From Nitrososphaeria archaeon (GTDB taxonomy: Archaea > Thermoproteota > Nitrososphaeria > JACIWG01): a DNA stretch of 64,000 nucleotides. Below, piece after piece: positions 8,047 through 42,743 of this stretch (position 1 is its first letter; each line of letters starts with the position of its first letter). Under the pieces are notes generated by a model. It saw nothing but the letters and a program-made list of their open reading frames with translations. It did no database searches and was not told the origin of the DNA. The position numbers were made by a program, and so were the translations under genes. Location of the stretch: assembly GCA_050011875.1 (NCBI GenBank), contig JBEKIG010000002.1, positions 1 to 64,000 of the forward strand, in the 5' to 3' direction.

Positions 8047-8388
8047 TTTCTTATACAGATAGCCAGGGGTAAATGTTCAAAAGATGGAAGGAAATGGGGT
8101 TAACCTCAAAATGCGTTAAGCAAAATGCTATCACAGTCAACATTCTTTCTAGCTATTAACCTACACCAAATCTTATGAAGATTAAATTTTCAGATCTTGA
8201 GACTTAATATCCTCTAGTTATTATTTCTTATAGCTTTTTTCATTTTATTTAGGTCGGCCAGCGTACGATTTATAAAAAATGCTGAAAAATCCGAAAAGTT
8301 TAAACTATCTCGAGTTAAATTTAACTTTGTGATAAATGAAGGCGCTGGAAGGACTTTAGTTAGCACGGCAAAAAAGGATTGATCCAAG

Positions 8389-8559
8389 ATGAAGAGAATG
8401 GTCGAGCCAAGAAAAAACTACCTGCAAAGATTTAACCGTCTGCTTGCAGTGCCGACGTTGGTTTTGTTCATAATCTTAACTATATCAGGATATGGCATAA
8501 CTAACTTGAATACGGTAACTAATTGTGCTGATGCAGTACATGGTGGTGTGAGAAGTTGA
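8389..8559 (+). CDS. Small membrane protein, possibly a truncated remnant
   Basis: MKRMVEPRKNYLQRFNRLLAVPTLVLFIILTISGYGIT...; stop overlaps the start of the next gene. Confidence 0.4.
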   Translation: MKRMVEPRKNYLQRFNRLLAVPTLVLFIILTISGYGITNLNTVTNCADAVHGGVRS

Positions 8560-9724
8560 AGAATTATAAAGCGATTGTCTTAGCAGGTTTTATAGTGATA
8601 TCTGCCCTGCTTACCTTCATGCCAGCAATGAAGCAGGCTGATGCTCAAACAGACATTGTATTACGAATTTACGGTGCCGTAAACAACCCTTTGAACCTCA
8701 CGTACGATCAGCTGCTTTCTTTTCCCATGGTTTCAGAGGTGGCAAGGCTAAAGTGTGTCGCAGGATACCCTGACGTCACCTACAACTGGACTGGAATACC
8801 GCTTTTTTATCTGTTGACCCTAGCTCAGATTAAGCCTGACGCTGACAAGGTCGTTACGATAAGTGGTTTAGACGGCTTTTCTTCGGACCTCCCTGTCGAA
8901 TACGCTTTGGAACCTACTACCCAGACAGCCAAACCGGGCTCAATAGACTAGTCGTCCCAGGAATGTATGGCTACAAATGGGTCAGTGGGGTCGACGAGAT
9001 AAATGTAACGACGAATAATGCTCTAGGGCTCTATGAGAGCGATGGATACCCCGATGAAGCCCTTGTGCCTGACTATGGGCCCATATATGCGTTGGCTCCT
9101 CCGCTGCAAACGTTCAATGTAACTTACGCAAACAGAACGTTCGGAGTTGATTCATTCACAAATGCTTCAATGACAAACGTCGTTTTTGATCCTTCCCAGA
9201 AAAAAATGGATGTGAGCATGACCGTTTTGAATGGAACATCGAGTTTTGTGGACTTCATATTTGAGCAAGGCTTTTTAAAAGGGCCATACAACGTAACGAT
9301 AGACGAAAAACCAGCAAGCGCGATTGAAGCTGACACAAACACGACTTCATACCTCTACATAACTCTTGCCGAAGGCTTTCACACTGTAAGCATATCAGGC
9401 ACAGTGTTATTGTATCCTGAAATAATACTGTACTACCAAGCATCAACATATGTTGGAAAGAGCGTAACATTTGATGCAAGCAAATCTGTAGACATAGGAA
9501 AAATAGTCTCTTACGGTTGGAGCTTCGGCGACGGGTCAATCACAAACGGAACCACAGCGGCAGTGGTGTCGCATTCTTATGAAAAACAAGGAACGTACCA
9601 AGTGGAACTCGAAGTAACAAACAATGAAGGCTTAAGCAGTTTCAAGACGGTTACGATAACCGTTACAATCCCGCCTGGGAACATTTTCTTCATCCTCATA
9701 GTCATTTTAGCAACAATTAACTAA
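8556..9724 (+). pseudogene. Secreted molybdopterin-binding oxidoreductase (sulfite oxidase/MsrP-like) + PKD domain, split by deletion/frameshift
   Basis: First part has G.V..PL.LTY..L and the Mo-ligand Cys (LKCV). RLVVPGMYGYKWV begins in another frame at about 8945, and the usual intervening segment appears missing. PKD motif (FDASKS.D...Y.W.FGDG...H.Y...G.Y.V.L.VT) near the C-terminus. Confidence 0.7.
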
Positions 9725-30116: not shown

Positions 30117-31412
30117 ATGTCTGAAGAGAATTTGAATGTTTTTACAGCGGTTACCGAGGAAGTCGATCCTGAAAAGAATGTTGTCGCTACCTATTACGTT
30201 GAAGGAAGAGACATTTCAATCGATGAGGCTGGCGTGAAGATTGCTGCTGAAGAATCTATTGGTACATGGACTCAAGTTTCAACTGCAACAGAATGGATCG
30301 TTAAGAATCTTCCAGCAAAAGTATTCGAACACAAGTTAGAGAATAAAAACACAGGAATAATAAAGATAGCTTACCCAAATATCTTGTTTGATTTTGAGAC
30401 AGGAGGTATTCCTAATATATTGAGCATCGTTGCAGGCAACCTTTTTGGTTCAGGTTCACTTCAAAACGTTAGACTCGTAGATATTCAATTTCCCAAGGAG
30501 GCCGTGCTATCTTTTAAAGGTCCAAAATTCGGAATCGAAAACATTAGGAAGATCGTAGGCACCGTCGAAAGCAGAAGACCACATCTTGGAACGATTATCA
30601 AACCTAAGGTAGGCCTTAGTCCAAAAGAAACGGCTAAGGTGGCATACGAAGCCGCAATAGGAGGAGTGGACTTTATCAAGGACGATGAAACGTTAACGAA
30701 TCAAAAGTTCTGCCCACTGGATGATAGAGTAAGTAATGTTATGGAAGCGCTTGATAAAGTTAAGTCTGAAACAGGTAGAACTGTTCTCTACTCTCCTGAT
30801 ATAACCGCTGAGACTTATAGAATGCGGGACCTGGCTCAGGTTGCGCTGGACCATGGAGCTAATGCCCTTATGGTAGACTTTCTACCTTCCGGTTTCTCAG
30901 CTGTAAGACTGCTTGCTGAGGACCATTCTATAAAAGTGCCTATACATGTGCACAGGTGCATGCATGCTGCGATGACTAGAAATCCTAAACATGGCATCGC
31001 CATGATGGTGCTGGCGAAGCTTGTGCGTTTAGCTGGAGGTGATCAACTACACACCGGAACTGTTGCCGGAAAGATGGGTGGAAAAGAGAAAAAGGTCGAG
31101 GAACTAATTGCAATGAACAACTTCTTGAAAGGGGAATTCTATGGTTTGAAGACGACGTTCCCTGTCGCTTCAGGGGGGGTTCATCCATCCGTTGTTCCGA
31201 TAAACGTTCTCACACTTGGTAAAGATATTGTGATTCAAGCAGGAGGTGGAATTCATGGCCATCCAAATGGCACTAGGGCAGGCGCAGTTGCAATGAGGGA
31301 TGCTATAGATGCGGTGACAAAGGGTATTCCTCTAGAAGAATACGCGAGAGATCACAAGGAACTCTACGTGGCTATACAGCATTGGGGAATGAAATTCGTT
31401 ACAGAAGAATAG
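30117..31412 (+). CDS. rbcL: Rubisco large subunit, form III-like (or closely related Rubisco-fold enzyme)
   Basis: AAEESIGTW, AGNLFG, IKPKVG, DFIKDDE, HVHR, DQLHTGT.AGK, ASGG, QAGGGIHGHP. Confidence 0.75.
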   Translation: MSEENLNVFTAVTEEVDPEKNVVATYYVEGRDISIDEAGVKIAAEESIGTWTQVSTATEWIVKNLPAKVFEHKLENKNTGIIKIAYPNILFDFETGGIPNILSIVAGNLFGSGSLQNVRLVDIQFPKEAVLSFKGPKFGIENIRKIVGTVESRRPHLGTIIKPKVGLSPKETAKVAYEAAIGGVDFIKDDETLTNQKFCPLDDRVSNVMEALDKVKSETGRTVLYSPDITAETYRMRDLAQVALDHGANALMVDFLPSGFSAVRLLAEDHSIKVPIHVHRCMHAAMTRNPKHGIAMMVLAKLVRLAGGDQLHTGTVAGKMGGKEKKVEELIAMNNFLKGEFYGLKTTFPVASGGVHPSVVPINVLTLGKDIVIQAGGGIHGHPNGTRAGAVAMRDAIDAVTKGIPLEEYARDHKELYVAIQHWGMKFVTEE

Positions 31413-33593: not shown

Positions 33594-36005
33594 TTAACTC
33601 TCGCTTTTCTTCCCTCCTTCTAGGAGGAATTGTGGGAATTTCGATAGTTTCTTAGCCATCTCACTGAGGCGTTTATCCACTTTGTAGTTTACAGTTTCTT
33701 CCTCAAATGTTCCATCCTTTTCCCTTACGCCAGCTCTGACACCTGCAAGGATTTCTATTCCCTCGTCGATTGTTTTAACTGAATAGATGTGGAATTTTCC
33801 ATCTTTGACAGCGTCAACTATCTCCTCTTTCAGCATTAAGTTTTGAACGTTACTTTCAGGTATCATCACACCCTGTTTTCCTGTGAAACCTTTAGCTTTG
33901 CAGACTTCAAAGAATCCCTCGATTTTTTCGTTTACTCCTCCTATAGCCTGAACTTGACCTTTCTGGTTAACTGATCCGGTAACAGCAATGTCCTGCCTAA
34001 TTGGCAACTCGGAGAGGGCGGATAGTATTGCATATAGTTCAGTACTTGAAGCGCTGTCACCTTCTACTCCTTCATAATTCTGTTCAAAGACGAGTCGTGT
34101 AGACAAACTAAGCGGATTATCTATAGCATATTTTCCGTTTAGGTAACCAGCTAAAATAAGGACTCCTTTTGTATGGATTGGGCCTCCCATGTTGGCTTCC
34201 CTTTCAATGTCAACAACCCCTTCCCGACCTAAACCTACAGAAGCCGTTACTCTTGATGGAATGCCGAAGTCGAAATCGCCGAGACTTATCACGGAAAGAC
34301 CATTAACCTGTCCAACACTCTCTGCTTCTGTATCGATAAGTAGTATGTTCCTTTTGATCATTTCCTGTATCTTCTCCTGGACAAGTTTTGAACGGTAGAC
34401 CCTCTCTTCAATTGCCTTTCTAACGTGAATTCCGGTTATAAAATCCGAATTTTCCTGTGCCGCGTAAAAGTTTGATTCACGTATAACATCAGCAACTTCA
34501 GCAAACCTTGTGGAAAGTTTTTGCTGATCTTCAGCAAGTCTTGAACTATATTCAATCAATTTGGCTAGACCTGTGCCGTTAAGATGTTTTAAATTTTCTT
34601 TCTGACAGAGTGCGCAGACAAAAGCTGCATATTTTTGCACGTTTTCTTCTGTCCTATCCATGGTTGAGTCGAAATCAGCTTTAACTTTAAAGAGCTCATT
34701 AAAGTCCATATCCAAGATATATAATTGTTGATAGATGTATGGGTCACCGATTAGAATAACTTTAACACTTAGAGGGATCGGTTGAGGTTTTAGACTCTTG
34801 GTTGTGAAGAAACCATAACTCTCCTCCACCTCCTCTATAACGACCTGTCCGTTTTTGAGGGCTCTTTTCAACCCATCGTATGAGAATGGGTTTACGAGCA
34901 GCTCTTCAACTGGAATAATCAGATATCCACCATTAGCCTTATGCAGTGATCCAGATCGAACCATAGTGAAATCTGTAGTTAAATAACCGAATTGGGCTTC
35001 TCTCTCTATTCTTCCGAAAATGTGTGGGTGAGTCGGGTTGCTCTCAAGAATCACCGGTGCACCCTTAAGCCCACTGTTATCTACCATCACATTTACTTCG
35101 TACTTTGTTGAGGCTGGTTCTCTCATCCATGGAAATTGTTGTTGAGCAGTCGCGCTTGGCTCCTTAATAAAATCTTCTAGCTTCTCTAAGATGTCATTCT
35201 GAAGTTCTTCAAGATATGCCACGATATCACTATATTCTTTGTATTTTTCCTTAAGATCGGCAATCAGGTGGCCTATAGCGTAGAGTGCTACTTCCTTATT
35301 CAGCTTTTTTATCTCCTCTAAGACTTTACCTTCAAGGTCTCTAAGCTGTATGAAAGCATTCCTTAGATCCGAATTTAGTTTCTCTCTTTTTTTATTAATT
35401 TCATCTCTAACTTGTTGGCTTAGAGAAAGAAACTCTTTATCGGTTAAAGCTCGCCCTTTAATAGTAGGTATTATTAACAGACCTACAGAGCTGCTTTCGA
35501 GGACGAAGCCTTCTTCCTGGGCTTTTTTGTTGAGTTCAGAAAAAAGATCGTCTCTTTCCTTTTCGATCGCCTGTATTGTGTTATCTCTTTTTGTGATATA
35601 GTCTTCGCTTTTAAAAGCTTTAGGGAGAACTCTTTTAGTCTGACTAATAAAATCCAAAACATCTTTTTGGAAAAGTTTTCCTTTTCCTGGTTGAAGCTTT
35701 ATTGCTTTTGGTTCATATTGATTGGAAAAGTTGTTCACATAGCACCAATCGAAGGGAATCGGTTCAGTTTTAGCCATGTCATCAAGGAAATTCTTGACAG
35801 CTGTCGTCCTGCCCGTTCCATGAAGGCCAGAAACATAGACGTTAAACCCACGATCTTTAATTCCAAGCCCAAATTTGAGAGCTCTGACAGCCCTTTCTTG
35901 GCCAATAATTTCTCTGAGTGGCGTTAACCCCTCTGTACTCTCACAACTCATTATACTAGGGTCACAAATCCTTCTTAATTTTTCTGCTGATAACTCATTA
36001 TTCAT
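33594..36005 (-). CDS. LonC-type Lon-family protease
   Basis: IIGQERA, G.LHKANGG, GQVNGLSV, EGDSASS.E...GGVNEKIEGF Ser-Lys dyad; Walker A degenerate (GTGRTT). Confidence 0.9.
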   Translation of the reverse strand: MNNELSAEKLRRICDPSIMSCESTEGLTPLREIIGQERAVRALKFGLGIKDRGFNVYVSGLHGTGRTTAVKNFLDDMAKTEPIPFDWCYVNNFSNQYEPKAIKLQPGKGKLFQKDVLDFISQTKRVLPKAFKSEDYITKRDNTIQAIEKERDDLFSELNKKAQEEGFVLESSSVGLLIIPTIKGRALTDKEFLSLSQQVRDEINKKREKLNSDLRNAFIQLRDLEGKVLEEIKKLNKEVALYAIGHLIADLKEKYKEYSDIVAYLEELQNDILEKLEDFIKEPSATAQQQFPWMREPASTKYEVNVMVDNSGLKGAPVILESNPTHPHIFGRIEREAQFGYLTTDFTMVRSGSLHKANGGYLIIPVEELLVNPFSYDGLKRALKNGQVVIEEVEESYGFFTTKSLKPQPIPLSVKVILIGDPYIYQQLYILDMDFNELFKVKADFDSTMDRTEENVQKYAAFVCALCQKENLKHLNGTGLAKLIEYSSRLAEDQQKLSTRFAEVADVIRESNFYAAQENSDFITGIHVRKAIEERVYRSKLVQEKIQEMIKRNILLIDTEAESVGQVNGLSVISLGDFDFGIPSRVTASVGLGREGVVDIEREANMGGPIHTKGVLILAGYLNGKYAIDNPLSLSTRLVFEQNYEGVEGDSASSTELYAILSALSELPIRQDIAVTGSVNQKGQVQAIGGVNEKIEGFFEVCKAKGFTGKQGVMIPESNVQNLMLKEEIVDAVKDGKFHIYSVKTIDEGIEILAGVRAGVREKDGTFEEETVNYKVDKRLSEMAKKLSKFPQFLLEGGKKSES

Positions 36006-36711
36006 TTAATAATTCACCTGTTTGCATGTGACATAGATTTTGTCGGAAATATATATCTTTAACTGAATGAATTTTTTTATTTACAGGCTAGCTGTTTTAT
36101 TATTTTTTATTTGTTTAAAGGTGATAAATAGAAAGAAATCATTTTTTTATCTTTTTCATAGTTTTAGCAAGTAAAATGACGTCTCAAATCGAACTTAACT
36201 TTCCTCTCATTTACTATTTTGTTTGCTTCATTAAGGGAGAATTTTTCAAGTGATAAACGTTACTTTTCTGTAGCAACTTTGATTTTAGCATTTCATATAT
36301 TTCCAGTCGATTGGCGAACCCCAGAATCGAAATCTGGTATAGGCAATAAGGAAAGTCGACGCACTTAACTAGAAAAGATAAGTGCCTGACGTTCTTATCA
36401 TTTTCAACCACTTTAATAAAATTATTACATTTCCAAGAAAAGAAATTAAGAAAATGTTCTGGTGTATAAAATGATGGATCCAAAATTTAATAATAGAACA
36501 ATAAATTCTAAAAAATCGGAAGTTTAAGAAGACACTTCGTTAAAAGATGAAGAAAAGAAAAAGAAAGCTAGGTTGAGAAGACGTGGACTTTATAGGAAAG
36601 CGCTTGCCGACTAGTATAGAAGTCAATAAAGCAGTCACTTTGAGAAAAAGTAAAAAAATTTAGAAAAATTCTTTCTCATATGAAATAAATGGGAAGAATA
36701 GTGTGTGAGAG

Positions 36712-36733
36712 GGTTCTGTTAACTTATTTGCAC
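36712..36733 (+). repeat. Left terminal inverted repeat GGTTCTGTTAACTTATTTGCAC
   Basis: Exact reverse complement of 41461-41482; GGTTCTGTT start is typical of IS6-family IRs; preceded by target duplication copy 36703-36711. Confidence 0.93.
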
Positions 36734-36817
36734 AGTGGCATTAAACTTCTTTAAAAGCCTTTCCGAAAAAATGCTTTCACATGGCATTCGGATAAACGTT
36801 ATATAAACGACAAGTGT

Positions 36818-37051
36818 GTGAGGATTCGAGGTGTATCTTTGGCTATAAAGATCACCTTCGCATTCCTATTGATTGGGAGTGTGGCAATAGCCACGTTCGG
36901 ATCAGTAGTAATGGCAGGGATAGCAAGTCTGTCGAAGCCAGTCAGCGAAGAAGTTTCAGCGACGGCTGGAGCTTACTCGTTTGATTTCATGGGGCTTGCT
37001 ATAATACTTGCCATAGCTATTGTGGCGGTTGCCTATCTTACCCACCGATAG
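36818..37051 (+). CDS. Small two-TM protein (transposon cargo); likely start TTG at 36839
   Basis: Two hydrophobic segments; TTATATAA at 36799 and GAGGTG at 36828 favour the start at 36839. Confidence 0.6.
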   Translation: MRIRGVSLAIKITFAFLLIGSVAIATFGSVVMAGIASLSKPVSEEVSATAGAYSFDFMGLAIILAIAIVAVAYLTHR

Positions 37052-37101
37052 CGATGTGAGGTGTAATAGACATGGCTCATACTGAGTGTGGGCAAATTGC
37101 A

Positions 37102-37129
37102 GGTAAGGGTGAGGCTATTCACCCTTACC
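37102..37129 (+). terminator. 11-bp stem-loop, followed by a T-tract
   Basis: GGTAAGGGTGA-ggctat-TCACCCTTACC, then a T-run at 37139-37145. Confidence 0.5.
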
Positions 37130-37264
37130 CCCTCCCACTTTTTTTCAAGTGGGGATAATACGTACGTATTTACGTAATTTGTAATGTTTAATAAACTTTT
37201 TTTAAAACTTGAGACGTTTTTGCCATAGGGTATACCCCTATATTTTATTTGCGGGGGCTTTGAA

Positions 37265-37319
37265 CATATCCTAAGAATATCTTTAAAGATATATATAGTG
37301 GTATATCCTTATGGATATG
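37265..37319 (+). promoter_or_regulatory. Transposase promoter with an array of ATATC(C)/(G)GATAT half-sites
   Basis: Perfect palindrome ATATCTTTAAAGATAT (37277-37292) over a TTTAAA box; ATATCC at 37266 and 37303, GGATAT at 37313. Confidence 0.6.
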
Positions 37320-37320
37320 C

Positions 37321-38226
37321 GTGGGAAATATGATATGCAAATACTGTCTATCTGAATCGGTCAAACCAGCTGGTTCAATGGATGGAAGGAAACTTGTAAG
37401 ATGCAATGTATGTAATCGCAGATTCTTTGAAAATGATAAACTTCCAAAGATGAGAAGTAAAAAATATGTTATAGTATCAGCTATTTCCATGTATTTTGAT
37501 GGTCTTTCAGTTAGGAAGACCTCGAGACAATTAGAAAGCATCTTTGGAGAGAAGGTAAGCCAAGTAACTATCTGGAAGTGGGTTCAAAAATACTCGAAGA
37601 TTGTAAGCGAATATGTTAGGACGTTAACCCCTAACCTTTCAGGTAAATGGCATCATGACGAAACAGTAATTAGTTGCGATGGAAGAAACCAGTGGTTCTG
37701 GGAGATGATAGACGAAGACACAAAGTTTTTAGTGGCGTCCCACATATCACAAGACAGAACAATCGAAGATACAGTTGAAGTATTCTCGAAAGCTATGGAG
37801 ATGGCAAAGCAGAGACCTAACGTCCTATTCGTTGACGGTTCACACGCCTACGATAGAGCCTTCAATAAAGTCTTCTACACAAGATACAAGGCAAACAAGG
37901 TTGAATTAGTTAAGAAAGTTGGGATAAGAGCAAGGGAGACAAATAACATAGTTGAAAGACTACATGAGACACTGAAGGAAAGAACAAAGATAATGCGTGG
38001 ATTCAAAAACCAAGATTCAGCAAAGCTAATACTGGAAGGATATGTAGTAAACTATAATTTCGCAAGACCACACCTAACCCTTAAAGGGAAAACACCAGCC
38101 GAAGCAAGCGGAATAGAAGTTAAAGGATGGAAACAGCTAATCGAAAACGCAATTCAATCCGAGAATATAGGGGCGCAACCTCAAACACAGAGAAAAGCAG
38201 TCGAAGTTATGCAGGTGGTTCGATGA
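37321..38226 (+). CDS. IS6-family DDE transposase with N-terminal zinc ribbon and HTH (start probably ATG 37330)
   Basis: CxxC...CxxC, GLSVRK...VS..TIWKWV, WHHDET, FVDG..AY, NN.VER.H..LK.R, GFK. Confidence 0.93.
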   Translation: MGNMICKYCLSESVKPAGSMDGRKLVRCNVCNRRFFENDKLPKMRSKKYVIVSAISMYFDGLSVRKTSRQLESIFGEKVSQVTIWKWVQKYSKIVSEYVRTLTPNLSGKWHHDETVISCDGRNQWFWEMIDEDTKFLVASHISQDRTIEDTVEVFSKAMEMAKQRPNVLFVDGSHAYDRAFNKVFYTRYKANKVELVKKVGIRARETNNIVERLHETLKERTKIMRGFKNQDSAKLILEGYVVNYNFARPHLTLKGKTPAEASGIEVKGWKQLIENAIQSENIGAQPQTQRKAVEVMQVVR

Positions 38227-38399
38227 AAAAAGCCCTTGTTGCGCTACCAGATCAAGTGTGGGACATTATAGACTCAAAGCTAAAAGGCAAACTTGGGGAG
38301 GGACACTCGGACATAATAAGAACAATCGTGATAGCCTACCTTTCAGAGCAAGGATATTTAAGCGAAGGTGGAAAAAATGCCGAAGAAAGAAAAGACTAA
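38223..38399 (+). CDS. CopG/ribbon-helix-helix protein
   Basis: True start is probably ATG 38223, overlapping the transposase stop (ATGA): MKKALVALPDQVWDIIDSKLKGKLGEGHSDIIRTIVIAYL, beta-alpha-alpha pattern. Confidence 0.75.
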   Translation: MKKALVALPDQVWDIIDSKLKGKLGEGHSDIIRTIVIAYLSEQGYLSEGGKNAEERKD

Positions 38400-38532
38400 A
38401 ACAAAGACCAAAGACGATGAAGTTGACATACTGGACACCATGATAACGTCATTAGCAGAGCTACTGGAAGAGAAAGGTGTCATAACTCAAGAAGAATGGG
38501 AAAAGAAAATCAAAAAGAATCTTAGAGGTTAG
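38377..38532 (+). CDS. 51-aa protein with SHOCT-like motif
   Basis: Manual translation MPKKEKTKTKTKDDEVDILDTMITSLAELLEEKGVITQEEWEKKIKKNLRG; AGGTG SD-like site upstream; overlaps the RHH gene end. Confidence 0.65.
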   Translation: MPKKEKTKTKTKDDEVDILDTMITSLAELLEEKGVITQEEWEKKIKKNLRG

Positions 38533-38567
38533 AAAAGAATAAAAAGAGTCTCTATCCTAAAATATAT

Positions 38568-38683
38568 GGTTTGAGGGGTTAGCGGAACGAGCATGATTAC
38601 AGGTTTATACCCTCATGAGTGCTTGCACACTCATGTCGCCACGTTTCATGCAAGCCTAACCCGTTAACCTTTCCTCCCAAATC
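38568..38683 (+). ncRNA. Candidate structured RNA (nested multi-stem) inside the transposon
   Basis: Four nested helices; G.U wobbles favour the + strand. Confidence 0.45.
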
Positions 38684-40029
38684 TATTTTTTCTCCTCTTT
38701 GCTAGATTGCTGTTCTATAACAGGTTTCTCCCACGCCTCAAATCCTACTCCTTGCTTGGGTTTAGTCTCCTCTAAATTTAATACGTTATCCGTTTTCTTA
38801 GTGTTCCCGTTCCCTTCTTCTATTATGGTGGTTTCGTTATCAGTTCCTTGATTATAGATTCTTATAGGAATGTCCAGTAGCTGCAATTTCTCTCTGAACT
38901 CTGCAACCTTGACCTTAGGAAGTATGGTTTCTAGCTGTACACCGTTTGCCATAAGTAGGACTATAAACTGTTCTTCCTGCGTAAGACTTGAGACTTTGCT
39001 CTGTAACGTATACCATGTTTTCTTTAATAGAGATAAGAGTGGTTCGTAAAGCCATACTGCCATACCAAGTTTCCTATTCCGTGAAGACTTGAATAAGATC
39101 GTGTGTAACATTGAGTAAAGACGCCAGAGGAATAATTGGTTCTCATCCGCTGTTGCAACCCATAGAAATCGATCCTGTTGGAGAAAACTATTTCTCAGAG
39201 CTTCATTGCCAAGATGCTTCCGAATTTTAGCTAAGAAATCATCTCTTGCTTTCTGTTCATCTACTCCTAATTTCTCATAAAACCCTAGATAGCCAAATGC
39301 TCTTTGTGCTATTTCATCATCTGAAAGAGACTCACCAGCGTGCTCCACCAAAAAAGGAATATGGAAGAAAAAGTTGTCTTCAGGACTTACCGAATAAAGC
39401 TCTTGGAGTGGAAGTGTATCCTTTGCTTCTTCAACACCAACAAGAGTTGGAATCCATGTTTTGTTTGAATTTTTCTTAACTAAATTAAATGATTGGAGAA
39501 CTCTTAGCAAGTGCAAAGTTGTAGATGCTTTAAGCTTAATACCATTAGATATGTCGGTTAAACGTACAGGTTTTCCAATTTTCATTAAAAAGTTAAGTAC
39601 CAACTTCTGATTTGGTTTGAGATCAAAGGTCTTTTCAATTTTTAAATTTTCTTTTTCAAGGTCTTTTTCAATTTTTAAATTTTGACCCTTGTCTGGAATA
39701 TAGATGGTGATTCCTTCTTTGCTTTTCTTTATCTTCTCTTTCTGCTCGAATTTTTCATGCTCTTTCTTTTCCTCTCTGAGAGGTAGGGCTATACCATTGG
39801 CGATTGCCAATTTTGAGTTTATAATTTGGTTCCCTATATTACTTCTCTCAATATTCGTCTCAATGATTTGACCTCGGTCTTTAAGGTAACGCAAGATATT
39901 TGCTATTTTATGGGTGATGTCCTTTCTTCCTTTTCCTTCCATACCACCTGCGAAATGTTCATATAAGTTTGGTCGATTACAATCTGAGTGTTCTTTCAAA
40001 TATTGATAGACCTCAGCTTTATCAACCAA
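38683..40029 (-). CDS. Unknown 448-aa protein with two predicted winged-helix domains (transposon cargo)
   Basis: KIANILRYLKDRGQI and PVRLTDISNGIKLKASTTLHLLRVLQSFNLV..W..T..G wHTH patterns; unknown helical C-terminal domain. Confidence 0.75.
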   Translation of the reverse strand: MVDKAEVYQYLKEHSDCNRPNLYEHFAGGMEGKGRKDITHKIANILRYLKDRGQIIETNIERSNIGNQIINSKLAIANGIALPLREEKKEHEKFEQKEKIKKSKEGITIYIPDKGQNLKIEKDLEKENLKIEKTFDLKPNQKLVLNFLMKIGKPVRLTDISNGIKLKASTTLHLLRVLQSFNLVKKNSNKTWIPTLVGVEEAKDTLPLQELYSVSPEDNFFFHIPFLVEHAGESLSDDEIAQRAFGYLGFYEKLGVDEQKARDDFLAKIRKHLGNEALRNSFLQQDRFLWVATADENQLFLWRLYSMLHTILFKSSRNRKLGMAVWLYEPLLSLLKKTWYTLQSKVSSLTQEEQFIVLLMANGVQLETILPKVKVAEFREKLQLLDIPIRIYNQGTDNETTIIEEGNGNTKKTDNVLNLEETKPKQGVGFEAWEKPVIEQQSSKEEKK

Positions 40030-40031
40030 TG

Positions 40032-41300
40032 CTATTCAACCTCCCTAGTGACCATTCGTGAAACAACATGCCCTACTGGATTAACTACATCACATAGTCC
40101 TGCAACTCTATTGAGTATTGTACGGGTTCGGCTATCGGTAGGTTGATAGATGCCATCTTGACTTCGTGACACAAGACCAACTCTCATCCAAAGCGGTCCC
40201 ATCATTCTTTTACCAAATTCGTCTAGGTCAACATCCTTTACTCCATTCTTTAAGATTAAATCAATCAGTTGCGAGACCTTCGTACCATCGCCAAAGTCCT
40301 TACCAAGCTTTGACTGGAGTTCACCAAGCGTTGCAAGTGCACTTTCATTCTTTGGCAGGTACTTGCTTAACTTTGTACCCAAAAGTTTCTCGAGGTCTTC
40401 TATATACTTAGCTTGCCTATTGAAATAAAAAATATTATCGCCATGTCGCATTGTGATCAGAGAGGGATTCAGTCCACTAACCAAGTCCTCTAAAGTTCCA
40501 TATTCGACCAATTCATATGCAAGTTCTTTACTAACTAATGCAGGTACACTAGCGAGAGAACTCGGATTGCCCGTGGCTGGAAAAGTTGGTAAGATAAACA
40601 ATTTGTCGTCATATTCGCTGTAAAACGGCACTTTATTGTGTTGATGAAATGGTTCAATATTCATAACGCTAAAGATATTGACAGGTTTGATAACTTCTAG
40701 TAGATGATGGCTATTGAGATTATCCTGTACGGTAGAGGCTAAATCACGTCTAGACATCTTACGAGGGTTTGCATCGACTAACGCCATCGAGCCTATGGTC
40801 TGAGCCATAGCCTTCACATATGGACTTCTAAGCATCGATTCAGGGTTCATAAGCATAGCAAAGGTAGTTGAACTCACTTCAGGAAAAATTTTCACAAATT
40901 TTTGATTCTCTTCTGTATATATATAAATCTGCCCAAGTTCAATGGAACGTTGGAGTTTCAAAGTGACGAGTCCTTTAACTTCGGATCGTCTATCTTGGCG
41001 TTCTAAAATTGGAATACCTGTAATTCTCATATATGCCGTGGTGGTTTTTTCCAAGAAGTCATCCAAAGGAAGTACTCCGCCAAAACTTTCAAAGACTTCA
41101 GCAACAGCAATACCTAATTTTAAATTCAGGGCTCTGCGATAATTCACTTTAGTTTTCTCCAAGGCGTCTTTAGTCCCGATGTATGAAGTTGAAAGAACAG
41201 TTGTTCGCATGGCTCTTTGGCTGAAGTCTTCCTTATCCATGTCAAGTGCATTAGCTATCTTTTCAACTTCTTTCATGATCATTTGAAGTTTGTTATCCAT
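40032..41300 (-). CDS. Unknown 422-aa protein (transposon cargo)
   Basis: Long ORF with AAAGGT upstream; stop lies 2 nt before the next start; no recognisable catalytic motif. Confidence 0.75.
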   Translation of the reverse strand: MDNKLQMIMKEVEKIANALDMDKEDFSQRAMRTTVLSTSYIGTKDALEKTKVNYRRALNLKLGIAVAEVFESFGGVLPLDDFLEKTTTAYMRITGIPILERQDRRSEVKGLVTLKLQRSIELGQIYIYTEENQKFVKIFPEVSSTTFAMLMNPESMLRSPYVKAMAQTIGSMALVDANPRKMSRRDLASTVQDNLNSHHLLEVIKPVNIFSVMNIEPFHQHNKVPFYSEYDDKLFILPTFPATGNPSSLASVPALVSKELAYELVEYGTLEDLVSGLNPSLITMRHGDNIFYFNRQAKYIEDLEKLLGTKLSKYLPKNESALATLGELQSKLGKDFGDGTKVSQLIDLILKNGVKDVDLDEFGKRMMGPLWMRVGLVSRSQDGIYQPTDSRTRTILNRVAGLCDVVNPVGHVVSRMVTREVE

Positions 41301-41338
41301 CGTTATCTTTACCTTTAACCAACTATGGTTAGACTTGG

Positions 41339-41358
41339 CTAAATATAAACATATTTAG
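41339..41358 (-). promoter_or_regulatory. Palindrome CTAAATAT-aaac-ATATTTAG over the cargo-operon TATA box
   Basis: Perfect 8-bp arms; minus strand contains TTTATA about 40 nt upstream of ATG 41300. Confidence 0.55.
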
Positions 41359-41460
41359 TATTGTTTAGCCTTGTTCAACATCTAACCTCAAAATTGTGTA
41401 TACTCTAATTTTGAACCACCATATAATACTAAACCGTTAAAACCTTATAACACTCAAGTC

Positions 41461-41482
41461 GTGCAAATAAGTTAACAGAACC
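41461..41482 (-). repeat. Right terminal inverted repeat
   Basis: GTGCAAATAAGTTAACAGAACC, followed by target duplication copy GTGTGAGAG 41483-41491. Confidence 0.93.
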
Positions 41483-41526
41483 GTGTGAGAGTAAAACTTA
41501 TCAATAAGTCACTATAAGATAATATT

Positions 41527-41787
41527 ATGTCAGAGGTTAAGAAGACAGTAGTGGGCGAAATCGAACACTTCTATCCCAAGATAAATGTAGTTATTGTGAC
41601 TGTCAAAACCCCTTTGAAGGTTGGAGACAAAATAATAATAGAAGGTAAAACTACACATTTTGAGCAGATTGTAGATTCAATGCAGATCGAACATTCTAAC
41701 ATTAAGGAAGCGGAGCTGGGACAATCCATAGGCCTTAAAGTTGTTAATAAAGTAAAAGAAGGCGACACTGTCTTCAAATTAGATTAA
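41527..41787 (+). CDS. Translation elongation factor-like beta-barrel protein (U32 C-terminal-like)
   Basis: VG.I.HFY.KI.V......LKVGD.I.I.G.TT.F.Q.V.SMQI. Confidence 0.8.
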   Translation: MSEVKKTVVGEIEHFYPKINVVIVTVKTPLKVGDKIIIEGKTTHFEQIVDSMQIEHSNIKEAELGQSIGLKVVNKVKEGDTVFKLD

Positions 41788-41929
41788 TAAAAAGATCTAG
41801 GTTCACAAAGGTTCATTGCTATATATTTTAGATAATAAAAAATAGTTCAAAAATAAATACTCTTTTAAAGTGATAACAATTATTTAATAAATAATGGAAT
41901 ATCGTATATCGGAAATGGTGCTTTAATAC

Positions 41930-42550
41930 ATGTTTGACTTATCTGTGCTCCTGAAAATTATAATCGTTAGCGCTTCAGGAGCACTTGTACCAGGTCCTTT
42001 AACGGCATCGGCTACTACACTTGGCGTAAAAAATGGGTGGAAGGCTGGTTTAAGAATTGCATTTGGTCATACACTTGTTGAATTTCCTCTAGTTATTTCG
42101 ATAGCCTATGGACTTGAAACTATCTTTCAGATTCCATCAATCAAATTTTTCTTAGGATTAGTTGGTGGGTCATTTCTGTTATTTTTTGGTTGTCTAACAG
42201 TAAAAGATGCACTTTACGTTAGAAGCAGTGATTTTCAGAACACAAAATCCAAGCATAATTCTTCCCTATTCGTGGGCGTTATCTTAACATTATTTAATCC
42301 ATATTTTATCGCTTGGTGGCTAGGTGTAGGATCAACTCTTATGATGCAAGTGTTAACTTCAATAAGTCTATTTGTGGTCATTGTTTTTTATTTGGCTCAC
42401 GTGTGGTTGGATTACGTCTGGCTTATGTTTATTTCCACGGTTGGTTCAGCATCAAAAATAAATCTCAAACTCTATAAGATAATTTTGATAGTATTATCAA
42501 TTATAATATTCTATTTCGGAATAAATCTGATTACATCAACAATATTTTAA
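41930..42550 (+). CDS. LysE-family translocator
   Basis: SGAL.PGPL, G..AG...A.GH, NPYF..WW. Confidence 0.88.
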   Translation: MFDLSVLLKIIIVSASGALVPGPLTASATTLGVKNGWKAGLRIAFGHTLVEFPLVISIAYGLETIFQIPSIKFFLGLVGGSFLLFFGCLTVKDALYVRSSDFQNTKSKHNSSLFVGVILTLFNPYFIAWWLGVGSTLMMQVLTSISLFVVIVFYLAHVWLDYVWLMFISTVGSASKINLKLYKIILIVLSIIIFYFGINLITSTIF

Positions 42551-42743
42551 ACAAAATTTGTATAACTGTTCTGTTTTATTGTTGTAATCCTTTTAATAAG
42601 CTCATTTTTAAAATTTATTAACGCTAGTAATATCTTCTAGCTTTTTACATTGACCACACGTCAATATAAAAATATGTCTTAAACTTGACACATGCCTTCT
42701 TGGAAGAATAAGCATATTAGGTTAAAAAGTCTGATGCTAGCTT

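Follow-up and report, generated by a model that had tools for sequence, protein, structure and literature searches.

The IS6 insertion sequences described by Varani et al. 2021 (PMC7986276) are 700-890 bp long and consist of a single ORF which spans nearly the whole IS, enclosed by short conserved terminal inverted repeats (TIRs) that mostly start with GG and flanked by 8-bp repeats. They transpose via cointegrates, which are resolved by host recombination. According to the available text of that review, ISDsp3 of Dehalococcoides is the sole IS6 member which carries a passenger (a "tIS"). Harmer and Hall 2019 (PMC6807381) analysed 37 archaeal ISs which ISfinder places in the IS6 family, and state that they found no experimental transposition data for any archaeal IS6 member. 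The available portions of their paper make no mention of 9-bp duplications or of accessory genes, and use the word "passenger" once.

We analysed 64,000 nucleotides of DNA from a Nitrososphaeria archaeon of peat soil (the window), in which an earlier note, made from the sequence alone, had described an apparently recent 4.8-kb transposon of the IS6 type with passenger genes. We consider it highly probable that this element belongs to an IS6-related family of archaea, that it is an insertion sequence with passenger genes (a tIS, or unit transposon), and that it entered an intergenic site in a single insertion.

The element and its empty site

The element measures 4771 bp between its outer TIR bases (36712 to 41482; Table 1). 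Its arms, GGTTCTGTTAACTTATTTGCAC, are complementary at 22 of 22 nt; they are of the GGTTCTGT type, with GGTTCTG as the first bases, and are the only two matches in a search of the window for the 22-mer with up to 3 mismatches (expected 0.00, 100 shuffles). The same 9-mer, GTGTGAGAG, adjoins both arms on the outer side. The bases beyond it are unlike on both sides, and the direct repeat is thus exactly 9 nt. The perfect 22-nt TIRs and flanking 9-mers reported in the earlier note are therefore borne out both by direct reading and by the 22-mer search.

Table 1 Features of the element, in order of position in the window.
Feature	Position	Strand	Basis
Target-site duplication, left copy, GTGTGAGAG	36703..36711	.	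Direct reading; one homologous 9-mer at the uninterrupted site of G001
IRL, 22 nt, GGTTCTG start	36712..36733	+	22-mer search; same-type ends in relatives
Promoter-like segment upstream of orf77, left variable region	36745..36806	+	blastn to host and G001
orf77, putative small hydrophobic passenger ORF, left variable region	36818..37051	+	ORF list
Putative control region: O1 37266-37280, TATA-like box 37289-37297, O2 37303-37318	37266..37318	+	Alignment A8
Transposase: zinc ribbon (C6, C9, C28, C31), HTH, DDE (D113, D172, E212)	37321..38226	+	PF13610, NF033587, alignment A5
rhh58, 58-aa ribbon-helix-helix-like (RHH) protein	38223..38399	+	After the transposase gene (tnp) in 17/17 relatives; alignment A3
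orf54, 54-aa small charged helical protein, third core gene	38368..38532	+	17/17 relatives; alignment A4
orf448, cargo; two winged-helix domains and a conserved C-terminal domain of unknown fold	38683..40029	-	Alignment A6, AF2
orf422, cargo; probably two winged-helix-like domains	40032..41300	-	Upstream of orf448, co-directional
IRR	41461..41482	-	Perfect complement of IRL
Target-site duplication, right copy	41483..41491	.	Direct reading; G001 homology restarts at 41486

The empty site which the earlier note had proposed to look for exists in G001, a genome of the same genus as the host: the 9-mer occurs there once (TTATGAGAG, identical at 7 of 9 bases), between the same flanks, with window positions 35000-36213 matching at 92% and 41486-42565 at 94%, and the alignment across the site, ATGGGAAGAAT.GT.T.TGAGAGTAA.ACTTATCAATAAGTCA, is unbroken in G001 (A1). 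This single 9-mer shows that transposition brought in the ends of the element and duplicated 9 bp of the target. The empty site means that both ends moved together, and says nothing about the cargo aboard at landing. The insertion postdates the split of the host from G001 and the transposase is found in none of the nine other genomes of the host's family, in agreement with the recent insertion proposed earlier. The element is single-copy in the 2.64-Mb host genome, and no second copy of the 4.8-kb unit was detected there or in any collection searched.

The transposase heads a conserved three-gene operon

One intact transposase had been noted ~600 nt inside the left end, and the ORF is confirmed at that position. 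It encodes 301 aa from a GTG at 37321, although translation probably starts at the ATG at 37330 and yields 298 aa; an identical 298-aa protein is already on record. Judged by its sequence, the transposase is intact and, by the NCBI model, of the IS6 type: it scores 143 bits against NCBIfam NF033587 "IS6 family transposase" (cut-off 125) and matches Pfam PF13610 (DDE_Tnp_IS240) with an E-value of 1.5e-19. All 14 sequences of alignment A5 have the same DDE and zinc-ribbon residues, and the catalytic signature E--x---K-R is present as E212-H215-K219-R221. Searches returned ~910 relatives at E <= 1e-40. Bacterial plasmid IS6 transposases are ~26-30% identical to the window transposase, and the best matches among 72,556 plasmid records, which belong to the long zinc-finger IS6 clade of Clostridia, align at ~30% identity over residues 44-267 (E down to 1e-27).

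The transposase gene is the first of a conserved operon, followed by the genes for the putative RHH protein and the 54-aa protein. This order holds at 7/7 loci with 66-73% transposase identity and at 10/10 loci with 46-77%, and the ATG of rhh58 overlaps the transposase stop codon (ATGA). Only one of 15 members of the rhh58 family matches Pfam PF01402 RHH_1 (E 3.7e-6); the window rhh58 had no match in the Pfam search, and the family profile found nothing below E 0.2 in the PDB. orf54 belongs to no family in Pfam or NCBIfam and has no relative in the PDB. Of the "3.8 kb of other content" of the earlier note, ~0.3 kb consists of these two small conserved-core genes and is not cargo.

The 110-nt stretches that precede 13 transposase genes (A8) have the consensus ATATCCATATGGATAT - AGACTTATATAGTGGC - ATATCCATAnGGATAT, and O2 of the window reads ATATCC-N4-GGATAT. 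O1, the TATA-like box and O2 may together control the core operon: the RHH-like protein probably represses it via two ATATCC-N4-GGATAT palindromes placed around the TATA box.

Related elements share the core and differ in passenger DNA

We compared 17 close-relative loci with 46-77% transposase identity, in six of which, as in the window, the ends of the element could be set. All seven delimited elements (window, L016, L018, L019, L020, L021 and L047), which span 1870-4771 bp (1870-2806 bp for the six relatives), are flanked by a 9-bp duplication. What had been noted as an atypical duplication length is thus a family trait; by our own estimate, the chance of seven 8-bp repeats each gaining one base is ~0.003. 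The relatives have the ends GATTCTGTTAAC...GCAC on both sides, and close relatives begin with GATTCTG or GATACTG. The duplication varies more within a more distant subgroup: it is 9 bp in L051 and 8 or 9 bp in L050 and L053, and there is none in L056.

At the nucleotide level, the window element is homologous to the six relatives only in the TIRs and in the core, a stretch that begins ~60 nt before tnp and runs through orf54. The core flanks are unrelated between elements, which indicates that passenger DNA has been swapped: every family member carries some unrelated DNA where the window element has its cargo. The usual member is 1.9-2.8 kb long with the three-gene core, and the window copy is the largest examined.

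The element apparently belongs to a large archaeal group, undescribed so far, which duplicates 9 bp and swaps its passengers. We found no paper describing such archaeal IS6-type cargo elements, and the word Thaumarchaeota is absent from the available text of both Varani et al. 2021 (PMC7986276) and Harmer and Hall 2019 (PMC6807381), in keeping with the earlier suggestion of a possibly undescribed archaeal IS6-related class.

Passenger genes

The promoter-like segment in the left variable region is 85% identical to DNA that precedes a thioredoxin-like gene on the host chromosome (G000:C4:121556-121617), where a 111-aa ORF with a WCNPC motif begins 34 nt downstream of the matching segment; blastn also matches it to G001 (C19:144266-144327). 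It may therefore be host DNA taken up by the element. The adjacent orf77 has no family in Pfam, NCBIfam, PADLOC or PHROGs and no homologue in the elements of the relatives.

The cargo on the right consists of orf448 and orf422. Two relatives of orf448 (P0014 and P0015) pass the Pfam HTH_IclR model, and in its AF2 model (pLDDT 71.8) residues 132-208 match a MarR-type wHTH (Z 13.7, rmsd 2.6 Å, 74 residues). The AF2 model of orf422 is poor (pLDDT 60.6), with winged-helix-like matches reaching only Z ~8, and the protein has no family in Pfam, NCBIfam, PADLOC or PHROGs; its relatives number 11 among 5.8 billion clusters and 17 among 1.84 billion representatives. Relatives of orf422 and of orf448 lie on contigs of matching sizes (11634, 10598, 3620 and 9835 bp), and at one locus (L043) both cargo genes are paired with a 4-nt overlap. 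The models and this pairing suggest that the two are probably winged-helix proteins encoded by a conserved gene pair of a very rare family. In PADLOC, orf422 has 0 defence-model matches, and orf448 has only weak matches in the HTH region (CasR, E 0.0089; CARF3, E 0.015) which fall short of a defence call. We take them to be a putative DNA-binding pair from another mobile element, or else a regulatory or defence-like module.

None of the 17 relatives' loci contains orf77, orf448 or orf422, and the DNA of these three genes shows no relation to the relatives' elements. Among the family elements compared, the 2.9-kb orf422/orf448 pair is carried by the window copy only.

Transposition and acquisition of the cargo

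The zinc-ribbon/HTH/DDE transposase would bind the 22-nt ends and join them to target DNA after a cut staggered by 9 nt. If the element behaves like IS26, the route may be a replicative cointegrate followed by host recombination; cut-and-paste is the other possible mode. Any DNA between the ends would be carried along, and cargo is probably taken up by truncation, down to its right end, of a second IS copy that lies next to foreign DNA. One relative, L024, points to such a course: ~90 nt of the orf54 3' end together with the IRR occur there twice, in direct order, around 1.8 kb which holds a GH32-like (glycosidase) gene, and this duplicated right end suggests capture via a truncated second copy.

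A different history would be that an ordinary ~1.9-kb member landed and that orf448 and orf422 entered later by recombination or insertion, in which case the 4.8-kb unit never transposed as such. All that the duplication and the empty site establish is the joint arrival of the two ends, the whole unit is known from no second place, and all six delimited relatives are without this cargo. However, the cargo has no repeat, duplication or end-like sequence on its borders, and all family members hold unrelated DNA at the same position. Nor is a local donor visible: the cargo has no other copy or relative in the host genome, in the 9 other genomes of the host family or among 400 genomes of the phylum, and 400 genomes of the class gave only a single weak hit to part of it, interrupted by a stop (20.6 bits, E 1.3e-4). 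The transposase too is absent from those 9 other genomes of the host family, which makes joint arrival from outside the simpler course. We therefore regard later entry of the cargo as unlikely.

The element could also be a decayed pseudo-compound IS6 transposon (IS - cargo - IS) whose far end is what remains of a second copy, and hence no distinct single-transposase class. L024 has such a truncated second right end, and 45 nt of a transposase 3' end survive as an inverted relic in a 9.2-kb IS6-like unit elsewhere in the host genome (G000:C8). However, in the classical type the IS copies are direct, and no single duplication is expected to enclose the entire structure (PMC7986276, in the part available). 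In place of two direct full IS copies, the window element has one transposase and outer ends which are inverted, perfect and enclosed by one 9-bp duplication matching the empty site, so that the ends acted together as a single unit. The passenger region of the window contains no inner right end or truncated copy either (local alignment 19.5, shuffle mean 22.4), as expected of the single-transposase cargo transposon proposed in the earlier note. As an account of what the element is now, a decayed pseudo-compound transposon is very improbable; as an account of how the element originated, it is likely. An assembly artefact or chance pairing of repeats has next to no probability, even though the genome is a metagenome bin of 119 contigs with 4.83% contamination: no chance 22-mer matches are expected, the site is empty in G001, and independently built Logan contigs from two runs of two studies, both of which may be sources of this DNA, cross both junctions with 0 differences (6,799 bp, covering 35500-42282, and 51,780 bp, covering 35500-42700).

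Comparison with known systems

Taking the element as a passenger-carrying unit transposon, we tentatively suggest, as a possibility short of a probability, that it represents a distinct IS6-related archaeal class, separate from IS6 itself and defined by a three-gene operon (genes for the zinc-ribbon DDE transposase, an RHH repressor and a 54-aa partner), two palindromic operators, 9-bp duplications and two core-flanking "cargo bays" which are filled with host and foreign DNA via truncated second copies, that this class is a gene-shuttling vehicle in Nitrososphaerota and Bathyarchaeia, and that orf422/orf448 is a new two-protein DNA-binding module. If so, the module might serve mobile-element maintenance or defence, for example.

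Like IS26, IS257 and IS6100, the element has an HTH and DDE transposase which passes NF033587 and DDE_Tnp_IS240 and short, near-perfect TIRs, but its transposase bears an N-terminal zinc ribbon. Its TIR shares the GG start and the G at position 7 with the bacterial IS6 consensus (PMC6807381). The DDE/HTH transposase and TIRs of IS6 are thus present, whereas the 8-bp repeat and the 700-890 bp single-ORF layout are not. The earlier note had given ~0.8 kb and 8-bp duplications for classical IS6, as do the reviews in the text available; the window element differs in its length, as do its relatives, in its 9-bp duplication, and in having three conserved genes instead of one (PMC7986276), with passenger DNA on both sides of the core.

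An N-terminal zinc-finger extension and a length above 1 kb are shared with ISCpe7 and its kin (clade h of PMC7986276; clades VII-VIII of PMC6807381), which by the descriptions available are bacterial, and for which neither passenger regions nor partner genes for RHH or small proteins are described. With the archaeal IS6 members of ISfinder (PMC6807381) the element has in common the archaeal hosts, TIRs of at least 18 nt, which are longer than the bacterial ones, and the E--x---K-R signature; the 9-bp duplication and the accessory genes set it apart from that set as it is described in the available text.

In its organization the element resembles the tIS. The window element has a single transposase, no inner ends and genes dispensable for transposition inside its ends, and it has been seen as one copy only, not as the same unit at two sites. 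In ISDsp3, likewise, the ends enclose a passenger gene together with one IS6-type transposase (PMC7986276). However, by its description in the part of the review available, ISDsp3 carries one hypothetical passenger and is an isolated case, whereas the window element is part of a family with two variable sides.

Ends, insertion site and assembly support

The element carries perfect 22-nt terminal inverted repeats (TIRs; IRL on the left, IRR on the right) of the sequence GGTTCTGTTAACTTATTTGCAC, and the same 9-mer, GTGTGAGAG, adjoins both arms; the earlier note had recorded both repeats, and they are found exactly as described. The duplicated sequence is 9 nt and no longer, because the neighbouring bases differ. 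Allowing up to three mismatches, the TIR 22-mer has 2 matches in the 64-kb window, versus 0.00 expected from 100 shuffles. The element spans 4771 bp and is present as one copy in its genome (G000; 2.64 Mb, 119 contigs), and its G+C content of 38.7% is no outlier next to the window (38.3%) and the genome (40.8%).

A second genome of the same genus, G001, matches the left neighbour of the element (window 35000-36213, the Lon protease region) at 92% and the right neighbour at 94%, with the latter match beginning at window 41486, which lies within the right 9-mer. At the insertion point G001 reads GATGGGAAGAATTGTTTATGAGAGTAATACTTATCAATAAGTCA without interruption: the left flank of the window, a single copy of the 9-mer (7/9 bases identical) and the right flank, which is the empty site that had been proposed as a check. 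The comparison shows that the element is an insertion at a site left empty in G001. The intergenic DNA to the left of the insertion differs between the two genomes (window 36006-36702; positions 2451-5090 of L014, the G001 locus): it is about 2.4 kb long with ORFs of 159 and 119 aa in G001, and 0.7 kb long with an 89-aa ORF in the window. This intergenic locus seems to be a variable spot.

Both junctions are spanned with 0 differences by Logan contigs (6,799 bp and 51,780 bp) from two peat-metagenome runs belonging to two studies, and low-depth fragments of the cargo and flanks in a third run also show 0 differences. Since the window DNA may come from the first two runs, they exclude a binning or scaffolding artefact without being independent biology. 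The empty-site joint is absent from the contigs of the three runs; contigs lose rare variants. No RNA run is among the sequencing runs listed as holding the element's DNA, and an Rfam scan of 35500-42500 at E ≤ 1 returned 0 matches.

Features of the element, in window coordinates
Feature	Position	Strand	Remarks
Left 9-mer	36703-36711		adjoins IRL
IRL	36712-36733		perfect 22-nt TIR
orf77	36818-37051	+	small, hydrophobic; without family
O1 palindrome	37266-37280		one degenerate half-site
TATA-like box	37289-37297
O2 palindrome	37303-37318		12 nt ahead of ATG
transposase	37321-38226	+	likely start ATG 37330, 298 aa
rhh58	38223-38399	+	its ATG overlaps transposase stop
orf54	38368-38532	+
orf448	40029-38683	-	inward from right end
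orf422	41300-40032	-	inward from right end
IRR	41461-41482		reverse complement of IRL
Right 9-mer	41483-41491		adjoins IRR

Transposase and control region

The transposase passes the NCBIfam model NF033587, "IS6 family transposase" (143 bits, cut-off 125), and also Pfam DDE_Tnp_IS240. In an alignment of 14 relatives, the zinc-ribbon cysteines C6, C9, C28 and C31 and the residues D113, D172 and E212 are invariant or nearly so. Among 5.8 billion protein clusters it has 910 relatives at E ≤ 1e-40; those named by NCBI are called "IS6 family transposase" and come from Thaumarchaeota/Nitrososphaerota and Bathyarchaeota. In plasmid records it is matched best, with about 30% identity, by the long IS6-like elements of Clostridium that have a zinc finger (ISCpe7). 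For orf77, rhh58, orf54, orf422 and orf448, PADLOC, PHROGs and NCBIfam gave nothing useful.

The 60-70 nt upstream of the transposase gene are conserved and contain the palindrome ATATCC-N4-GGATAT twice, with a TTATATA box between the copies; an alignment of 13 loci gives the consensus ATATCCATATGGATAT AGACTTATATAGTGGC ATATCCATAnGGATAT. The rhh58 product has the strand-helix-helix pattern of ribbon-helix-helix (RHH) proteins: 1 of 15 aligned relatives matches Pfam RHH_1 (E 3.7e-6), the other 14 are without a match, and a search with the rhh58 profile found no solved structure. Probably rhh58 represses its own operon via O1 and O2. The orf54 product is conserved among the aligned core loci, and family and structure searches returned no known relative of it.

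A conserved core and 9-bp duplications

Scanning one genome per species returned 27 loci with a transposase relative, 7 of them at 66-73% identity, and 400 genomes of the host's class added 10 further loci in 9 genomes (46-77% identity); the nine other genomes of the host's own family contained none. All 17 loci at 46-77% identity have relatives of rhh58 and orf54 directly after the transposase gene. Both genes are missing beside four distant transposases (31-35% identity), two in a Nitrosopumilus genome and two in G000.

Ten loci other than the window have at least 66% transposase identity, and six of these (L016, L018, L019, L020, L021 and L047) could be delimited by paired ends of the GATTCTGTTAAC...GCAC type. 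The left end of L024 is off its contig, and in L048 the left end alone lies inside the locus. L017 has a degenerate right end and, at about 8200-9150, another transposase-like gene of a different kind occupying the region after orf54; it is an insertion of one IS into another.

The seven delimited elements, the window element included, span 1870-4771 bp, and every one is flanked by a perfect 9-bp duplication (GTGTGAGAG, CAGGCAACC, TGGTTTTTG, TTCACTAAG, TTCACGGGG, CTTTTACCG and CCGGATTTG). Under a true stagger of 8 bp, the probability of one more identical base by chance in 7/7 cases is estimated at about 0.003. In the more distant subgroup (46-57% identity) the ends begin with GATACTGTTCGATT and the duplications are less uniform: their length is 9 bp in L051 and, depending on end placement, 8 or 9 bp in L050 and L053, and L056 has none; L052 extends beyond its locus and three loci have no visible end pair.

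Passenger regions and their possible origin

Apart from the ends, the window element shares nucleotide homology with its six delimited relatives only in a core of about 1.25 kb, which begins about 60 nt upstream of the transposase gene and extends through orf54. On either side of the core, as far as the two ends, the DNA is unrelated; its ORFs differ from element to element, and the majority are without family. The family thus has a passenger region on each side of the core, and the content of both is exchanged. The left region measures 250-1050 nt; the right one measures 16-536 nt in the relatives and 2928 nt in the window element, by far the largest right-hand region.

How such DNA could enter is suggested by L024, a locus in another genome. 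At 520-2540 its orf54 is followed by a first right end with several changes (IRR 1), 1.8 kb of DNA encoding a 186-aa ORF and a 424-aa GH32-like glycosidase, and a second right end (IRR 2); on alignment, the final ~90 nt of orf54 together with IRR occur twice in the same orientation. From its sequence, L024 looks like a preserved intermediate of cargo capture. Capture would begin with an IS - cargo - IS arrangement, the pseudo-compound form of IS6, in which the second IS would lose everything except the right end; a unit with a single transposase would then be delimited by IRR 2 and the left end. The passenger regions of the window element and the six relatives contain no inner right-end relic above the level of shuffles, so for the window element a capture origin is a model only.

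On the left, the 62 nt of window 36745-36806, which immediately precede orf77, have 85% identity to G000:C4:121556-121617, a sequence that lies just upstream of a chromosomal thioredoxin-like gene and is also present in G001. The left passenger region thereby appears to have taken up host DNA, a putative host promoter.

The cargo pair orf422/orf448

The right-hand cargo consists of two genes whose products have few relatives. For orf422 there are 11 among 5.8 billion clusters, each about 420-435 aa long and 40-58% identical to it, and, by profile, 17 among 1.84 billion representatives, and neither it nor its relatives belong to a Pfam family. A tblastn search with orf422 found no match in 72,556 plasmids or 50,697 phage records; its profile gave 82 pattern matches in viral contigs, 0 of them confirmed, and a single locus of 2.8 kb in JGI metagenome contigs. 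It was found in 0 of 400 genomes of the phylum and 0 of the 9 other genomes of the order, and 400 genomes of the class yielded a single weak match, partial and containing a stop (20.6 bits). The orf422 family is very rare.

For orf448 there are 8 relatives, and two pass Pfam HTH_IclR. Its AF2 model (pLDDT 71.8) has an N-terminal winged helix, a disordered linker and a MarR-type winged helix (residues 132-208; Z 13.7, rmsd 2.6 Å over 74 residues), followed by a confidently modelled C-terminal domain (215-405). Foldseek against the PDB returned no match to this model at E ≤ 0.001, and in the ESM Atlas neither orf422 nor the C-terminal part of orf448 matched anything above chance level (TM ≤ 0.39). 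AF2 modelled orf422 poorly (pLDDT 60.6), and the resemblance of the two better parts of the model to winged helices (Z of about 8) is at a level that common arrangements also reach. We rejected a fold claim for orf422 on the quality of the model, and kinship with the winged-helix domains of MukF, JetA and Cdc6 because the scores (Z ≤ 8.1) are those of generic winged helices.

On L043, the only metagenome contig recovered, relatives of orf422 and orf448 overlap by 4 nt, and contigs of four sizes are common to the relatives of the two genes. The two form a gene pair elsewhere too. L043 has no TIR-like sequence near the pair, and PADLOC gave no support for a known defence system in the cargo. As a best guess, the pair is a DNA-binding module of two proteins that came from another mobile element, or else a module that is regulatory or defence-like. 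A rare conserved pair riding on a transposon deserves a functional test.

Other elements and repeats in the genome

G000 contains a second, larger IS6-like unit of 9.2 kb outside the window (G000:C8:76798-85994; L057 1298-10496). Its ends are 70-nt inverted repeats, 86% complementary and beginning GGTTCTGTTAACTTA, flanked on both sides by CAGAAAAG (8 bp). It has one transposase of 371 aa with SWIM and zinc-ribbon parts, 32% identical to the window transposase, and among the products of its cargo are an N6-adenine methylase with an HsdR-N part, a type I specificity subunit, a proteasome-like protein, a DUF365 protein and an ArsR-type regulator. A composite history is suggested by two relics inside the unit: an end-like repeat of 21 nt and, in inverted orientation, 45 nt from a transposase 3' end. 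The flanks of this unit are also present in G001, where they enclose a different element of 5 kb whose transposase is related.

Two short sequences on contig C11 of G000, a solo right-end-like 22-mer GATTCTGTTAACTTTGTTGCAC with 3 mismatches to the window TIR (31369-31390) and a 40-nt stretch that matches the start of the transposase coding sequence, its first codons, at 93% identity (79223-79262), are, as judged from these similarities, fossils of the window element's IS family. Repeats starting with a GATTCTGTTAAC-like motif and then CTGAGGCCGCCTCA occur at G000:C1:154833, C10:24566 and C13:14472 (also C5:42145 and C14:72984); their outer flanks are alike, so the repeat unit is longer, and they may be another repeat or MITE family.

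Discussion

Here an IS6-related transposase appears to serve as a single-copy gene carrier in mesophilic soil archaea. To our knowledge, few plasmids or viruses are known in Nitrososphaerota and Bathyarchaeia, and the family would be a concrete route of gene flow in both. With 22-nt ends, one transposase, one RHH protein and two putative operators, it offers a simple experimental system, suited to the question whether archaeal IS6-like enzymes form cointegrates.

IS6/IS26 elements are the textbook example of gene movement only as two-copy composites, a mode that the putative L024 intermediate connects with the single-copy one. As reviewed, IS6 members are 700-890 bp long with 8-bp repeats and one ORF, transfer genes as pseudo-compound transposons via cointegrates, include ISDsp3 as the single passenger-carrying member, and have zinc-finger transposases mainly in a clostridial clade (Varani et al. 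2021, PMC7986276). In a second study, the 37 archaeal ISs filed under IS6 have no more than a distant relationship to the bacterial ones, their separation is proposed, and experimental data on them are none (Harmer and Hall 2019, PMC6807381). The terms "Thaumarchaeota" and "9 bp" are absent from both texts, PMC7986276 and PMC6807381. A survey of 20 thaumarchaeal genomes lists 244 ISs of 13 families with 1 or 2 genes each (Krupovic et al. 2019, PMC6563490); outside Figure 7 and the supplements, "IS6" as a whole word is absent from that text, and the word-start matches are IS605, IS607 and IS630. A literature search, with ISfinder and TnCentral outside its scope, turned up no publication on cargo-bearing IS6 elements of archaea or on 9-bp duplications.

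The earlier note had read the element as a single-transposase cargo transposon, possibly of an undescribed archaeal class. The finding is real and this interpretation is supported by the ends, the duplication, the empty site, the match of the transposase to the IS6 model and the relatives with 9-bp duplications. The element appears to work like an IS6-type transposon. It resembles IS6 in its transposase and TIRs but departs from the family as reviewed in the 8-bp repeat, the length and the single ORF, and we therefore place it, as a variant, in an IS6-related archaeal group: one that combines a core of three genes with 9-bp duplications and with passenger regions open to exchange, that is apparently undescribed in the literature, and that differs from IS6 in having its own putative regulator genes, another target stagger and free exchange of passenger DNA.
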